NCBI RefSeq assembly: GCF_044324875.1
Contig: NZ_CP172185.1
DNA length: 64,000 bases
Source of the DNA: Escherichia coli
GTDB lineage: Bacteria; Pseudomonadota; Gammaproteobacteria; Enterobacterales; Enterobacteriaceae
Strand: one strand, 5' to 3'
The notes under the pieces are model-generated. The model was given only the letters and a program-made list of their open reading frames with translations, made no database searches and was not told the origin of the DNA. Made by a program: the position numbers and the translations under genes. Shown here in pieces: positions 2,750 to 62,208 of this stretch. Every line of letters starts with the position of its first letter. The first letter of the stretch is position 1.

Positions 2750-4137
<1,388 letters not shown>

Positions 4138-14561: not shown

Positions 14562-15002
14562 GTGATTGGCGCAAACTGCCTGATAGGTAATTATGCGTTT
14601 ATTCGTCCTGGCACAATAATCAGCAATGGCGTAAAAATTGGTTTTGCCACCGAAATTAAAAATGCGGTTATTGAAGCGGAAGCAATGATTGGTCCGCAAT
14701 GCTTTATCGCCGACTCGGTAGTTGCAAACCAGGCATATTTGGGCGCACAAGTACGTACCAGTAATCATCGTCTGGATCAACAGCCCGTGTCTGTTCGAAC
14801 TCCAGAGGGAATTATCGCTACCGAATGCGATAAATTAGGTTGTTATATCGGGCAGCGTTCACGCCTTGGCGTACAAGTTATTATTTTGCCTGGGCGAATT
14901 ATTTCCCCGAACACGCAACTTGGCCCGCGCGTGATTGTAGAACGTAATTTACCTACCGGAACTTATTCACTCCGACAAGAACTTATCCGTACAGGAGATT
15001 AA
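14562..15002 (+). CDS. yaiX: Hexapeptide-repeat acyltransferase (YaiX-like); 5' end uncertain, possibly truncated
   Basis: Left-handed beta-helix repeats (VIGANCLIGNYAFIRPGTIISNGVKIG…). Frame is open back to 14454, directly after the yaiP stop, with no in-frame ATG before the GTG at 14562. Confidence 0.55.
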   Translation: MIGANCLIGNYAFIRPGTIISNGVKIGFATEIKNAVIEAEAMIGPQCFIADSVVANQAYLGAQVRTSNHRLDQQPVSVRTPEGIIATECDKLGCYIGQRSRLGVQVIILPGRIISPNTQLGPRVIVERNLPTGTYSLRQELIRTGD

Positions 15003-15003
15003 A

Positions 15004-15777
15004 ATGATAAAACGGACGTTATTAGCGGCGGTCATTTTTAGCGCATTGCCCGCTTATGCCGGGTTAACTTCCATTACCGCGGGCTACGATTTTACCGATT
15101 ATTCTGGCGATCATGGCAACCGTAATTTAGCGTATGCTGAACTGGTGGCGAAAGTTGAAAACGCAACGCTGCTTTTTAATCTTTCCCAGGGGCGTCGTGA
15201 TTATGAAACTGAACATTTCAATGCCACTCGCGGTCAGGGTGCGGTCTGGTATAAATGGAATAACTGGCTGACAACCCGAACGGGTATTGCCTTTGCGGAT
15301 AATACGCCGGTCTTTGCCCGCCAGGATTTTCGTCAGGATATTAACCTGGCACTGTTGCCAAAAACGCTTTTCACGACCGGTTATCGCTACACGAAATATT
15401 ACGATGATGTCGAAGTCGATGCCTGGCAAGGCGGCGTATCACTCTATACTGGCCCGGTGATCACCAGCTATCGCTATACCCATTATGACTCCAGCGATGC
15501 AGGTGGTAGTTACAGCAATATGATTTCCGTGCGTCTGAATGACCCGCGCGGCACTGGTTATACGCAACTATGGCTAAGCCGCGGAACAGGTGCTTACACC
15601 TATGACTGGACGCCAGAAACACGCTACGGCAGCATGAAGAGCGTCAGTTTGCAACGTATTCAACCGCTGACTGAGCAACTTAATCTCGGGCTGACGGCAG
15701 GTAAAGTGTGGTACGACACCCCAACCGATGATTATAACGGTCTGCAACTTGCAGCCCATCTGACCTGGAAATTCTGA
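15004..15777 (+). CDS. yaiO: Outer-membrane beta-barrel protein YaiO
   Basis: 257 aa; signal peptide MIKRTLLAAVIFSALPAYA; alternating aromatic residues and C-terminal …HLTWKF ending in Phe, typical of OM barrels. Confidence 0.8.
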   Translation: MIKRTLLAAVIFSALPAYAGLTSITAGYDFTDYSGDHGNRNLAYAELVAKVENATLLFNLSQGRRDYETEHFNATRGQGAVWYKWNNWLTTRTGIAFADNTPVFARQDFRQDINLALLPKTLFTTGYRYTKYYDDVEVDAWQGGVSLYTGPVITSYRYTHYDSSDAGGSYSNMISVRLNDPRGTGYTQLWLSRGTGAYTYDWTPETRYGSMKSVSLQRIQPLTEQLNLGLTAGKVWYDTPTDDYNGLQLAAHLTWKF

Positions 15778-15887
15778 TTCCTTCTGCCGCCCGCTATCCG
15801 GGGCGGCCTTCCCTGCCGATTAGCCCCACCCCCTTTCCTCTTTGTTTTCCGACCACATTCACCGGATAAATTTTATTCTCCAGTGTT

Positions 15888-15940
15888 ATATACTATAGGG
15901 GGGTATGCATTGACATATAGAATACCCCCCTATAGTATAT
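15888..15940. promoter_or_regulatory. frmR operator/promoter: perfect 19-bp inverted repeat ATATACTATAGGGGGGTAT, 15-bp spacer
   Basis: 15888-15906 is the exact reverse complement of 15922-15940; located about 25 bp upstream of the frmR start. Confidence 0.7.
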
Positions 15941-15964
15941 TGCATGCAGATGATGAGGTGCGAA

Positions 15965-16240
15965 ATGCCCAGTACTCCGGAAGAGAAGAAAAAGGTCCTT
16001 ACTCGAGTTCGTCGTATTCGGGGGCAGATTGATGCTCTGGAACGGTCGCTGGAGGGTGATGCCGAATGCCGTGCCATACTCCAACAGATCGCTGCCGTTC
16101 GGGGCGCGGCTAACGGGCTGATGGCAGAAGTGCTTGAAAGCCATATCCGGGAAACGTTTGACCGAAATGACTGCTACAGCCGCGAAGTCAGCCAATCCGT
16201 TGACGACACTATTGAACTGGTTCGTGCCTATCTTAAATAG
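15965..16240 (+). CDS. frmR: Formaldehyde-responsive repressor FrmR (CsoR/RcnR family)
   Basis: Frame from [29 protein letters not shown]… (91 aa); first gene of frmRAB. Confidence 0.9.
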
Positions 16241-16244
16241 CTGA

Positions 16245-17384
<1,140 letters not shown>

Positions 17385-17476: not shown

Positions 17477-18310
17477 ATGGAACTCATTGAAAAACATGCC
17501 AGCTTTGGCGGCTGGCAAAATGTGTATCGGCATTATTCCCCATCACTGAAATGTGAAATGAATGTCGGCGTCTATCTCCCACCAAAAGCCGCAAGTGAAA
17601 AATTGCCGGTGTTGTACTGGCTTTCAGGGCTGACTTGCAACGAGCAGAATTTCATTACTAAATCGGGGATGCAGCGTTACGCGGCGGAGCACAACATTAT
17701 TGTTGTTGCGCCAGACACCAGTCCGCGAGGCAGTCATGTCGCAGATGCTGACCGTTACGATCTCGGGCAAGGTGCCGGGTTTTACCTGAACGCAACGCAA
17801 GCGCCGTGGAATGAACATTACAAAATGTATGACTATATCCGCAACGAGCTGCCGGATTTAGTGATGCAACATTTTCCGGCAACGGCCAGAAAGTCTATCT
17901 CAGGTCATTCTATGGGCGGGCTGGGTGCACTGGTGCTGGCGTTACGTAATCCAGATGAATATGTCAGCGTCTCGGCGTTTTCGCCCATTGTCTCCCCATC
18001 GCAAGTACCGTGGGGACAGCAAGCCTTTACCGCATATCTTGGTGAAAATAAAGAAGCCTGGTTGGATTACGATCCGGTGAGTCTTATTTCACAAGGTCAA
18101 CGCATTGCGGAAATAATGGTTGATCAGGGGTTGAGTGATGATTTTTACGCAGAACAGCTGCGGACTCCAAATCTTGAAAAGATCTGCCAGGAGATGAATA
18201 TCAAAACGTTAATCCGTTATCACGAGGGTTATGATCACAGCTATTATTTTGTCTCCAGTTTTATTGGCGAGCATATTGCCTACCACGCCAATAAACTGAA
18301 TATGCGTTAA
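17477..18310 (+). CDS. frmB: S-formylglutathione hydrolase (esterase D family)
   Basis: 277 aa; nucleophile elbow GHSMGG. Confidence 0.93.
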   Translation: MELIEKHASFGGWQNVYRHYSPSLKCEMNVGVYLPPKAASEKLPVLYWLSGLTCNEQNFITKSGMQRYAAEHNIIVVAPDTSPRGSHVADADRYDLGQGAGFYLNATQAPWNEHYKMYDYIRNELPDLVMQHFPATARKSISGHSMGGLGALVLALRNPDEYVSVSAFSPIVSPSQVPWGQQAFTAYLGENKEAWLDYDPVSLISQGQRIAEIMVDQGLSDDFYAEQLRTPNLEKICQEMNIKTLIRYHEGYDHSYYFVSSFIGEHIAYHANKLNMR

Positions 18311-40339: not shown

Positions 40340-41275
40340 AATTATCCACGGTTCAGGCCTGTGGGCATGATAAGACGCGTCAGCGTCGCATCAGGCATCT
40401 GCGCACGGTGTCGGATGCGGCGCGAGCGCCTTATCTGACCTACGGTTCAGACCTGTAGGCATGATAAGAGGCACCAGCGTCGCATCAGGCATCTGCGCAC
40501 GGTGTCGGATGCGGCGCGAGCGCCTTATCCGACCTACGGTTCAGGCCTGTAGGCATGATAAGACGCGCCAGCGTCGTATCAGGCATCTGCGCACGGTGTC
40601 GGATGCGGCGCGAGCGCCTTATCCGACCTACGGTTCAGGCCTGTAGGCATGATAAGACGCACCAGCGTCGCATCAGGCATCTGCGCACGGTGTCGGATGC
40701 GGCGCGAGCGCCTTATCCGACCTACGGTTCAGACCTGTAGGCATGATAAGACGCGCCAGCGTCGCATCAGGCATCTGCGCATGGTGTCGGATGCGGCGCG
40801 AGCGCCTTATCCGACCTACGGTTCAGGCCTGTAGGCATGATAAGACGCACCAGCGTCGCATCAGGCATCGGCGCACGGTGTCGGATGCGGCGCGAGCGCC
40901 TTATCCGACCTACGGTTCAGGCCTGTAGGCATGATAAGACGCGCCAGCGTCGTATCAGGCATCTGCGCACGGTGTCGGATGCGGCGCGAGCGCCTTATCC
41001 GACCTACGGTTCAGACCTGTAGGCATGATAAGACGCGCCAGCGTCGCATCAGGCATCGGCGCACGGTGTCGGATGCGGCGCGAGCGCCTTATCCGACCTA
41101 CGGTTCAGGCCTGTAGGCATGATAAGACGCGTCAGCGTCGCATCAGGCATCGGCGCACGGTGTCGGATGCGGCGCGAGCGCCTTATCCGACCTACGGTTC
41201 AGGCCTGTAGGCATGATAAGACGCGTCAGCGTCGCATCAGGCATCGGCGCACGGTGTCGGATGCGCCACACGACG
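40340..41275. repeat. Tandem REP/BIME array, about 10 copies of a 94-bp unit
   Basis: Unit GCCTGTAGGCATGATAAGACGCGCCAGCGTCGCATCAGGCATCTGCGCACGGTGTCGGATGCGGCGCGAGCGCCTTATCCGACCTACGGTTCAG recurs with exact 94-bp period; ORF-track starts at 40461, 40555, … 41119 are 94 bp apart. Each unit holds two inverted REP palindromes. Confidence 0.9.
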
Positions 41276-45889: not shown

Positions 45890-46390
45890 TCATTTGTAGG
45901 GTCGAGATTGTTGTCGGATGCGACGCTATGCGTCTTATCCGACCTACAGTTCAGTTCACCCCGCAGGCCTGATAAGCCGCGTCAGCGTCGCATCAGGCAT
46001 CGGTTGTCGGATGCGACGCCATGCGTCTTATCCGACCTACAGTTCAGTTCACCCCGTAGGCCTGATAAGTCGCGTCAGCGGCGCATCAGGCATCGGTTGT
46101 CGGATGCGACGCCATACGTCTTATCCGACCTACAGTTCAGCACGCCCCGTAGGCCTGATAAGCCGCGTCAGCGGCGCATCAGGCATCGGTTGTCGGATGC
46201 GACGCTATGCGTCTTATCCGACCTACAGTTCAGTTCACCCCGTAGGCCTGATAAGCCGCGTCAGCGGCGCATCAGGCATCGGTTGTCGGATGCGACGCTA
46301 TGCGTCTTATCCGACCTACAGTTCAGTTCATCCCGTAGGCCTGATAAGCCGCGTCAGCGGCGCATCAGGCATCGGTTGTCGAATACAACC
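45890..46390. repeat. Tandem REP/BIME array, about 5 copies of a ~95-bp unit, between prpC and prpB
   Basis: Repeated GTCGGATGCGACGC…CTTATCCGACCTACAGTTCAG…GGCCTGATAAGCCGCGTCAGCG…CATCAGGCATCGGTT; ORF-track peptides repeat with about 32-aa period. Confidence 0.85.
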
Positions 46391-56494: not shown

Positions 56495-56705
56495 TGGGGT
56501 TATGACCAACGCCAGACTGCCTGATGCGCTACGCTTATCAGGCCTAGAATTCTCGTGCCATTCGTAGGCCGGATAAGGCGTTCACGCCGCATCCGGCAAT
56601 GGTGACAAATGCCTGATGCGCTACGCTTATCAGGCCTACAGATTCTCGCGCCACTCGTAGGCCGGATAAGGCGTTCACGCCGCATCCGGCAGAGACAACG
56701 CGCAC
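56495..56705. repeat. REP/BIME elements between yahI and yahG
   Basis: Two copies of CCTGATGCGCTACGCTTATCAGGCCTA…CGTAGGCCGGATAAGGCGTTCACGCCGCATCCGGCA. Confidence 0.85.
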
Positions 56706-60175: not shown

Positions 60176-60679
60176 TTATTGATAGTGTTTTATGTTCAGA
60201 TAATGCCCGATGACTTTGTCATGCAGCTCCACCGATTTTGAGAACGACAGCGACTTCCGTCCCAGCCGTGCCAGGTGCTGCCTCAGATTCAGGTTATGCC
60301 GCTCAATTCGCTGCGTATATCGCTTGCTGATTACGTGCAGCTTTCCCTTCAGGCGGGATTCATACAGTGGCCAGCCATCCGTCATCCATATCACCACGTC
60401 AAAGGGTGACAGCAGGCTCATAAGACGCCCCAGCGTCGCCATAGTGCGTTCACCGAATACGTGCGCAACAACCGTCTTCCGGAGCCTGTCATACGCGTAA
60501 AACAGCCAGCGCTGGCGCGATTTAGCCCCGACATAGCCCCACTGTTCGTCCATTTCCGCGCAGACGATGACGTCACTGCCCGGCTGTATGCGCGAGGTTA
60601 CCGACTGCGGCCTGAGTTTTTTAAGTGACGTAAAATCGTGTTGAGGCCAACGCCCATAATGCGGGCAGTTGCCCGGCAT
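60176..60679 (-). CDS. insB: IS1 InsB (transposase C-terminal frame)
   Basis: 167-aa ORF recognised as IS1 InsB. Confidence 0.9.
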
Positions 60680-60873
60680 CCAACGCCATTCATGGCCATA
60701 TCAATGATTTTCTGGTGCGTACCGGGTTGAGAAGCGGTGTAAGTGAACTGCAGTTGCCATGTTTTACGGCAGTGAGAGCAGAGATAGCGCTGATGTCCGG
60801 CGGTGCTTTTGCCGTTACGCACCACCCCGTCAGTAGCTGAACAGGAGGGACAGCTGATAGAAACAGAAGCCAC
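60598..60873 (-). CDS. insA: IS1 InsA (transposition repressor)
   Basis: 91-aa [46 protein letters not shown]…. Confidence 0.92.
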
Positions 60874-60928: not shown

Positions 60929-61270
60929 AGAGATTTACCAACTGCTGAAGCGGAAATATCTCGCGTGCAGGCGTCTATTATCAAATGGTATGCGTCAGAA
61001 TACCATAATGGCAGGCAAGTTCTCGATGAGATACAAACGCCTTCAGCAATTAACAGTGAGCTTTATACAAAAATGATATATCTGACCAGGAACTGGTCAT
61101 TGTATCCGAACGGTGATGGCTGTGTAACTATAAGCTCACCAGAAATAAAAAATAAATACCCTGCTGCCATTTGCCTGGCTCTGGGATTTTTTCTAAGCTT
61201 TGTAATTTCTGTAATGTTTTGCCTTGTCAAAAAAATGGTAGATGAATACCAACAAAACTCTGGGCAGTAA
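60929..61270 (+). pseudogene. 3' fragment of a membrane-protein gene (ykgH-like by position), 5' end replaced by IS1
   Basis: Frame open with no stop from the IS1 junction at 60929 to the stop at 61270; C-terminal hydrophobic helix (AAICLALGFFLSFVISVMFCLV). Confidence 0.4.
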
Positions 61271-61512
61271 TAAACAGCATTCTGATAGAGAGTGCCTGTA
61301 TAAAGCTGAAGTGACAATGACCGGGAAGGGAACCCGTTTTCAGGAATGGATGCCTGTCTTTTTCACTGTAAATATCCTGGCATTACTAATGCCAGGATAT
61401 TTACAGAAGAGCAGCATAACCATGACGGAACGGGGTTAAGTCAGGTTGTCCTTAACGCTATTCACAACCTCGTATGCCGACTTCAGGTTTATGTCCAGAC
61501 TTCATATCTCTC

Positions 61513-62208
61513 TCAGCAATCCTCAATAATCAGATACACCGCTTTCACCGGGCCATGAACCCCGACGACTTTGATAAGCTCAATATCCGCCGTTGAACTA
61601 GGGCCGCTAATGATGTTAATGCAGGACGGCATTCGTTCACCGGCCTGCGCTTTCTGATGCAATTTTTCTGCGAGTTGCGCTACACGCGGCAGGATTGTGC
61701 TTTTACGCAGGATAAAAAGAGAAGATTCCGGGAGCAGGCTCAATGAACGCCCGCGCCCGGCGGCGGAAAAAAGAACCACGCCTCCCGATTCGGTTAAACC
61801 ATATTCAGCATACACGACACCCACTTTAGCCTGCTCTGCTTGTGATATGTTCTCAATACCTTTCGCCGGATCCCAAACAACGGCATTGCATTCCTGCTGC
61901 AAACGTTCGCTAATCCCCAATTCCTCCAGCCTCGTGTCACCGCTAATCACGACCGACTGATCTCCCAGCTCTTTACACAGACGTATTGCAGCTTCTGCCG
62001 CCTTCGCCTCGCTGGTCAGTTCACAGCGCGTCAACATAACATCGCTGGCAAACTGAATAAACGCGTCACAACGCTGCTGTTGGGTAAGTTGGGTAAGCCG
62101 CTCGTTAGCATAGTTGTTAAGCGGCGCATCTTCTGCTTGCGGTTCAAGTCGCAGCGGGCGACCCAGTGCCTGAGCAACGTTATTCAAAAATTCGCTCCGA
62201 TTATCCAT
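61513..62208 (-). CDS. ykgG: LutC-like lactate-utilisation protein
   Basis: 231-aa frame from MDNRSEFLNNVAQALGRPL…; start 2 bp from the ykgF stop. Confidence 0.85.
   Translation of the reverse strand: MDNRSEFLNNVAQALGRPLRLEPQAEDAPLNNYANERLTQLTQQQRCDAFIQFASDVMLTRCELTSEAKAAEAAIRLCKELGDQSVVISGDTRLEELGISERLQQECNAVVWDPAKGIENISQAEQAKVGVVYAEYGLTESGGVVLFSAAGRGRSLSLLPESSLFILRKSTILPRVAQLAEKLHQKAQAGERMPSCINIISGPSSTADIELIKVVGVHGPVKAVYLIIEDC

Follow-up and report, generated by a model that had tools for sequence, protein, structure and literature searches.

The inverted repeat directly upstream of frmR in the 64-kb stretch of Escherichia coli DNA analyzed here ("the window") is almost certainly the operator of the frmRAB promoter: two inverted type I sites for the formaldehyde-responsive repressor FrmR. 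Two tetramers of the protein would occupy these sites and exclude RNA polymerase, and formaldehyde releases FrmR from the DNA. The original prediction had taken the repeat for the autoregulatory operator of a CsoR/RcnR-family repressor; published work on binding, release, repression, site alignment, and portability bears it out (PMC5146963, PMC5016687, PMC11127321). The element, its repressor, the chemistry of the effector, and the regulatory logic have all been published already. The present analysis therefore adds little to the biology, and its use is as a positive control: an operator and the family of its regulator were identified from sequence alone.

Geometry of the inverted repeat

Both a direct reading of the sequence and a repeat finder returned the element as it had been predicted, i.e., as a perfect inverted repeat with arms of 19 nt each, 100% complementary and 15 nt apart (Table 1). 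The arms cannot be extended, as they are bounded by mismatches on the outside (15887 T vs. 15941 T) and on the inside (15907 G vs. 15921 A). The placement directly upstream of frmR holds as well, with 24 bp between the end of the right arm and the ATG of the gene; the RefSeq start of frmR is identical to the one used here.

We used two approaches to gauge how readily such a repeat would arise by chance. An analytic estimate, which took account of the size and composition of the window, put the expected number of perfect inverted repeats that reach 19 bp, with arms no more than 60 bp apart, at ~1.5e-5 per 64-kb window. When the whole window was shuffled 40 times, the longest perfect inverted repeat per shuffle measured 9–12 bp. 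This final shuffle test employed the same routine that was applied to the real window; an earlier, quicker shuffle routine had produced a single unexplained 16-bp outlier in a 16-kb shuffle, and the test was then re-run. Given the analytic expectation and the shuffle maximum of 12 bp, we conclude that the repeat is non-random. The real window contains three perfect inverted repeats of at least 12 bp, among which the dyad upstream of frmR is the second longest. Its G6 and C6 tracts, which had been described as unusual, are indeed so: runs of at least six G occur once and runs of at least six C three times in the 64 kb, and two of these four runs are the operator tracts.

Table 1. Coordinates of the operator, promoter, and neighboring genes in the 64-kb window
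Feature	Position	Strand	Basis and remarks
yaiO	15004–15777		PF19413; upstream of the repeat
Left arm, ATATACTATAGGGGGGTAT	15888–15906		Sequence read, repeat finder
Distal FrmR site in left arm, ATAC-TATAGGGGG-GTAT	15890–15906	.	G6 tract 15898–15903; sequence, repeat finder, pattern scan
Spacer, gcattgacatataga	15907–15921	+	-35 hexamer TTGACA at 15910–15915 (promoter scan)
Right arm, ATACCCCCCTATAGTATAT	15922–15940		Sequence read, repeat finder
Proximal FrmR site in right arm, ATAC-CCCCCTATA-GTAT	15922–15938	.	C6 tract 15925–15930; sequence, repeat finder, pattern scan
-10 hexamer within right arm	TAGTAT 15933–15938 or TATAGT 15931–15936		17-bp or 15-bp spacing, respectively
Predicted frmRAB transcription start	15943–15945	+	5–7 nt past the -10; inferred
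Shine-Dalgarno GAGG	15955–15958	+	6 nt ahead of the frmR ATG (sequence read)
frmR, formaldehyde-responsive repressor, 91 aa	15965–16240	+	PF02583, NF008464, PDB 5lbm, RefSeq
frmA, S-(hydroxymethyl)glutathione dehydrogenase	16275–17384	+	TIGR02818 equivalog, 743 bits; annotation; regulated gene
frmB/fghA, S-formylglutathione hydrolase	17477–18310	+	TIGR02821 equivalog, 397 bits; annotation; regulated gene

Genes of the locus

The identity of the locus is secure: the 601 bp surrounding the element occur with 100% identity in many E. coli chromosomes, where the annotation reads yaiO / frmR / frmA. The frmR product matched the DUF156 family (PF02583; E 3e-23, 82 bits) and scored 189 bits against the NCBIfam FrmR equivalog NF008464, for which the cut-off is 133; against the RcnR model, it reached 68 bits, under the cut-off of 138. 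Over its full length (residues 1–91), it also matched EcFrmR, deposited as "Transcriptional repressor FrmR" (PDB 5lbm), with an E of 4e-55. Denby et al. (PMC5146963) identified Pro2 and Cys35 as the formaldehyde-sensing pair, with His60 neighboring; all three residues are present in the translation, as is T64.

The yaiO stop codon is 110 bp upstream of the repeat. Between the two, a GC-rich hairpin (GCCGCCC / 8-nt loop / GGGCGGC) is found at 15786–15807, 9 bp past that stop. It is followed by a pyrimidine-rich stretch without a T-run and was not called by the terminator scan. The DNA from ~15807 to ~15860 varies among Escherichia strains, with REP-like sequence in some of them. On the other side of yaiO, the acetyltransferase-like gene yaiX (window 14562–15002) is intact. 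An IS2 insertion disrupts this gene in the K-12 derivative J53, and the window thus comes from a non-K-12 strain, which nevertheless shares its operator allele with K-12.

Architecture of the operator and promoter

The functional units of the element are two 17-bp sites rather than one 19-bp dyad read as a whole. A pattern scan of the 64 kb for ATAC-N9-GTAT returned two matches only, one per arm, ruling out further FrmR sites of this form in the window. The long dyad exists because the two sites are mutually inverted. Nor is the 15-bp spacer inert, as it holds the -35 hexamer, which begins 3 bp past the end of the distal site. The proximal site overlaps both the spacer between the -35 and the -10 and the -10 itself.

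A sigma-70 scan of positions 15700–16300 found a single promoter-like site, TTGACA-17-TAGTAT, with 10/12 matches. By genomic SELEX with RpoD holoenzyme, Shimada et al. 2014 (PMC3946193) had independently identified the site TTGACA-15-TATAGT in the yaiO-frmR spacer. Either assignment of the -10 yields the same layout, with the -35 in the spacer of the dyad and the -10 in its right arm. The center of the dyad is at 15914; Denby et al. 2016 (PMC5146963) located it at -29, which would place the predicted start at ~15943. Downstream of that point, GTGAGGT is kept in the orthologous leaders that we compared.

These features are those of a type I operator of the CsoR/RcnR family. Such operators have a G/C tract of 3–8 bp (here, G6 and C6) enclosed by an AT-rich inverted repeat (ATAC...GTAT), and they overlap a promoter adjoining the gene for the cognate DUF156 repressor; the promoter in this case is attested by the consensus match and the published SELEX site, and its start is a predicted one. 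They are also conserved upstream of orthologous repressor genes, which for the present element was found in 68/80 species loci (see below). For binding by the cognate repressor and release by the effector, there is published work on promoter fragments (PMC5146963) as well as on sites transplanted elsewhere (PMC11127321).

The mechanism that best explains the element is the one already published. The two ATAC-N9-GTAT sites, each built around G6 or C6, are inverted on either side of the -35. When formaldehyde is lacking, FrmR tetramers would occupy both of them; we infer one tetramer per site in E. coli, with base contacts whose exact assignment is presumptive. The occupied sites would bracket the -35 and cover the -10, presumably excluding RNA polymerase by occlusion, and the expression of frmR, frmA, and frmB would thereby be kept low and self-limited. 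Cross-linking of Pro2 to Cys35 between subunits by formaldehyde remodels the DNA-binding face of FrmR, which then leaves the DNA and allows the operon to be transcribed.

Published work and related operators

Denby et al. 2016 (Sci Rep 6:38879, PMC5146963) described the element in E. coli K-12 as a large inverted repeat consisting of tandem type I sites, in which ATAC/GTAT enclose GC-rich tracts. It is the same element at the same locus, with no substantive difference: the 89 bp around the dyad are 100% identical to those of J53. The separation of the sites is 32 bp from start to start in our coordinates (15890 to 15922) vs. 31 bp from center to center in their report. Those authors showed that FrmR binds specifically to the promoter (KD of ~220 nM for Pfrm DNA vs. 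~3600 nM for control DNA), that formaldehyde blocks this binding and dissociates the complex, and that FrmR represses frmRAB transcription in vitro, a repression that formaldehyde relieves. Sensing proceeds via Pro2-Cys35 methylene bridges (PMC5146963). The portability of the sites has been shown as well: in a 2024 study (PMC11127321), ATAC-N9-GTAT sites moved into the constitutive promoter J23100 conferred FrmR-dependent repression on it. In the same study, a truncated PfrmR that retained both sites reportedly lost repression, hinting that DNA upstream of the sites may contribute to repression, too. The papers surveyed, which did not include the sort-seq study of Rohlhill et al. 2017 (PMC5569641), contained neither a footprint of the E. 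coli operator at base resolution nor mutagenesis of its single sites; a count of the word "footprint" in PMC5146963 gave 0.

The closest points of comparison are two operators from related repressors. That of E. coli RcnR (rcnR-rcnA; tandem TACT-G6-N-AGTA), as presented in PMC5146963, shares the type I G6 tract and the AT-rich flanking inverted repeat with the FrmR operator, and in both systems a tetrameric DUF156 repressor acts on an operator with two sites. They differ in the flanks (ATAC/GTAT around a 9-bp core for FrmR vs. TACT/AGTA for RcnR), in the separation of the sites (~32 bp vs. 19 bp), and in the effector (formaldehyde vs. Ni/Co). Furthermore, the FrmR sites are mutually inverted and form a long perfect dyad, unlike the RcnR operator. 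The Salmonella Typhimurium frmRA operator (Osman et al. 2015, 2016) likewise has a C6 tract inside a T/A-rich inverted repeat. The flank is required: mutation of one T/A-rich flank abolished the binding of Salmonella FrmR (PMC5016687), which otherwise binds the operator at ~100 nM and is weakened in this by formaldehyde. In Figure 2D of Osman et al. 2016 (PMC5016687), the G/C tracts and T/A-rich repeats are marked in an alignment of the E. coli and Salmonella promoters. The Salmonella operator, however, has a single tract as opposed to two in E. coli, and its promoter sequence is distinct. The two FrmR proteins are 52.3% identical and were considered polyphyletic by the authors of that study (PMC5016687).

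Conservation across species

Is the dyad kept among orthologous promoters? Poor conservation had been named in advance as a result that would speak against the operator. We collected 4-kb frmR loci from 80 species and searched them for ATAC-N8-10-GTAT with a G/C-rich core at most 200 bp upstream of frmR. The motif was present in 68/80 loci, with two sites in 21 and one site in 47, and most of the other 12 had a TACT-C5-7 variant in the same place. The reading of the dyad as an operator therefore stands. Elsewhere in the loci, ATAC-N8-10-GTAT was rare. Most of these matches fell at ~+1085 inside frmA, in a conserved codon stretch and without a G/C tract, and we rejected them as operators, regarding them as a coding coincidence.

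The two sites differ in how widely they are distributed. In one-site loci, the site is the counterpart of the right arm of the present element and is mostly 28–57 bp upstream of the ATG (in one case, it is at -66); ATACTCCCCCATAGTAT (Brucella/Ochrobactrum) and ATACTCCCCTGGGGTAT (Pseudorhodoferax) are examples. This proximal site is the one most widely conserved upstream of frmR homologues, occurring in Alpha-, Beta-, and Gammaproteobacteria. The distal site is largely restricted to Enterobacterales, Aeromonas, and Deefgea, and the long dyad with it; one Paraburkholderia also has a distal site, at a different spacing. By this comparison of loci, the proximal site appears to be ancient and the distal one a later, narrower addition, a point that we have not met in the papers surveyed.

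When 19 dual-site promoters were aligned, the columns for ATAC, GTAT, and TATAGTAT / (T)ATAGTAT and the TT of the -35 were invariant or nearly so, and the tract positions varied. From start to start, the sites were 32 bp apart in Escherichia, 33–35 bp apart in the majority of other loci, and 40 bp apart in those of Citrobacter and Klebsiella grimontii. With spacings that range from 32 to 40 bp among orthologues, there is no conserved, fixed helical phase between the bound tetramers. A second type of cassette (loci L008, L010, and L018) has long perfect dyads with arms of 18–21 bp, in which the tract is GTGGAG/CTCCAC instead of G6/C6.

Two smaller groups of loci had arrangements of their own. 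In place of two sites, the five from Tatumella carry one fully palindromic site, ATACTATA-N6-TATAGTAT, ~32–34 bp upstream of frmR. In those from a Citrobacter metagenome-assembled genome and from Klebsiella grimontii, an extra operator-like site, ATACTGCCGTATAGTAT, is located at position 2854 of the locus. A distance of 108 bp separates it from the start of a downstream 383-aa ORF (2962–4113) that comes after frmR, past a 685-bp gap without any ORF of at least 70 aa. This site may mark a second FrmR-controlled promoter.

Variation within E. coli and occurrence on plasmids

The 89 bp around the element occur once per genome in 5358/5426 complete E. coli genomes; the number of places at which copies of the element are found has a median of one and a maximum of two per genome. 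The exact 53-bp sequence of the window is present in 1032 genomes. The commonest allele (3555 genomes) has C for A at 15921, resulting in arms of 21 bp and a spacer of 11 bp. Among seven sampled E. coli alleles, the arms were constant save in one strain with a C7 tract, and the changes fell in the spacer, the -35, and the flanks. Although the sample of seven is small, the pattern looks as expected of an operator under constraint. The C7 strain is E. coli 07_3636, in which C7 replaces C6 in the proximal site; this could reflect either real slippage or a homopolymer sequencing error. In another strain, E. coli O121 RM8352, the -35 reads TTGGCA for TTGACA.

A dual-site operator 80–90% similar to that of E. 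coli was also detected on 234 plasmids from Klebsiella, Enterobacter, Serratia, Yersinia, and others. On these plasmids, it is upstream of frmR-frmA-(glyoxalase-like gene)-frmB cassettes, e.g., at 2490–2560 of the locus from K. pneumoniae pKpn23412-362 (L087); the cassettes of L008, L010, and L018 are further instances. Of the 239 records in the whole hit set, five of them near-identical ones from E. coli, 192 were predicted to be conjugative. Nearly identical upstream DNA in the Edwardsiella, Enterobacter, and Morganella loci suggests that the frm cassette is mobile. The linkage of the dual-site operator to frmR-frmA-frmB cassettes on more than 200 plasmids, most of them conjugative, is another point that we have not met in the papers surveyed. 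Such spread bears on tolerance to formaldehyde or methenamine and on how Pfrm-based biosensors are designed.

Alternative explanations

A long perfect dyad might function as a nucleic-acid structure, either as a cruciform in supercoiled DNA or as a hairpin in RNA read through from yaiO, where it would serve as a terminator or stabilizer. The sequence is certainly capable of folding: a single strand forms a 19-bp stem at -18 kcal/mol (z = -5.5 vs. shuffles), and the distance of the repeat from the yaiO stop would suit such a role. The stem lacks a trailing T-run, however, and the terminator scan of 15700–16300 was empty. In the 19 orthologous promoters, covariation was not significant, with a score of 0.137 vs. 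0.125 in shuffles and 92/500 shuffles reaching 0.137; the tract pairs are broken in 5–8 of the 19 sequences. In the Citrobacter, Klebsiella grimontii, Erwinia, Deefgea, and Mesocricetibacter loci, the complementarity of the arms drops to only 10–13/19 while the ATAC/GTAT flanks are kept, and the 47 one-site loci could not form a long hairpin at all. Rfam has no match at the dyad, and the predicted frmRAB start is downstream of it, which would put the dyad outside the operon's mRNA. On the terminator scan, the covariation, and the Rfam search, we rejected an intrinsic terminator or structured RNA. The motif of each site is conserved and the pairing of the arms is not, favoring two protein sites over a hairpin or cruciform, and we consider a structural role for the dyad highly improbable. 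That the palindrome is due to chance in an AT-rich promoter, or is a fragment of a repetitive or mobile element, has practically no probability. REP-type sequence further upstream in some Escherichia strains is the one observation, and nothing else, that would speak for the latter. Chance is countered by the expectation and the shuffle maximum given above, and a repetitive origin by the single-copy status of the element; at a median of one and a maximum of two places per genome, it is not the multi-copy inverted repeat of a repetitive or mobile element, and that candidate was rejected. Neither version accounts for the conserved placement of the element with respect to frmR, which holds in three classes of Proteobacteria.

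A different question is whether FrmR might read the 53-bp dyad as one unit, with a single tetramer bridging both sites and looping or wrapping the -35 region. Denby et al. (PMC5146963) raised this arrangement, as the sites are further apart than those in the rcnR-rcnA operator. The extent of the symmetry is in its favor, as it exceeds the 17-bp sites (19 bp here, 21 bp in the major E. coli allele), and so are the perfect 18–21-bp arms of the cassette with the GTGGAG/CTCCAC tract. The Salmonella operator, on the other hand, binds two FrmR tetramers (PMC4528141, PMC5016687), the inter-site spacing among orthologues is variable, and most homologues have a single site. Moreover, the ~15 bp of DNA between the sites would probably be too short to loop without severe distortion. 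We therefore judge a bridging tetramer to be very unlikely and favor two sites, each bound by its own tetramer. The lengths of the arms in this window, in most E. coli, and in the GTGGAG/CTCCAC cassette nevertheless gave rise to the idea that something more than independent FrmR binding maintains the identity of the sites: a tetramer might be sandwiched between them with the -35 DNA wrapped, or an extrudable cruciform might allow one arm to template the repair of the other. We regard this as very unlikely.

Other repeats in the window

The longest perfect palindrome in the window is at 61366–61406, where two 20-bp arms, CTGTAAATATCCTGGCATTA and TAATGCCAGGATATTTACAG, flank a single central base (c). 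It lies between a 101-aa ORF (60965–61270, +) and a 282-aa minus-strand ORF that ends at 61513, and it may function as a bidirectional terminator or as a site for a protein. About 500 bp from it, at 60176–60873, are two IS1-like transposase ORFs, which resemble InsA/InsB by a reading of their translations only. At 2694–2723 are the 13-bp arms of another perfect inverted repeat, TAATGCCCGTCAA / TTGACGGGCATTA, separated by 4 nt. Finally, Rfam naRNA4 (CssrE) matches were obtained at 40364–41192 (ten tandem copies ~94 bp apart), at 45966–46316 (four), and at 56567–56636 (one); the regular spacing of ~94 bp points to tandem repeat arrays.
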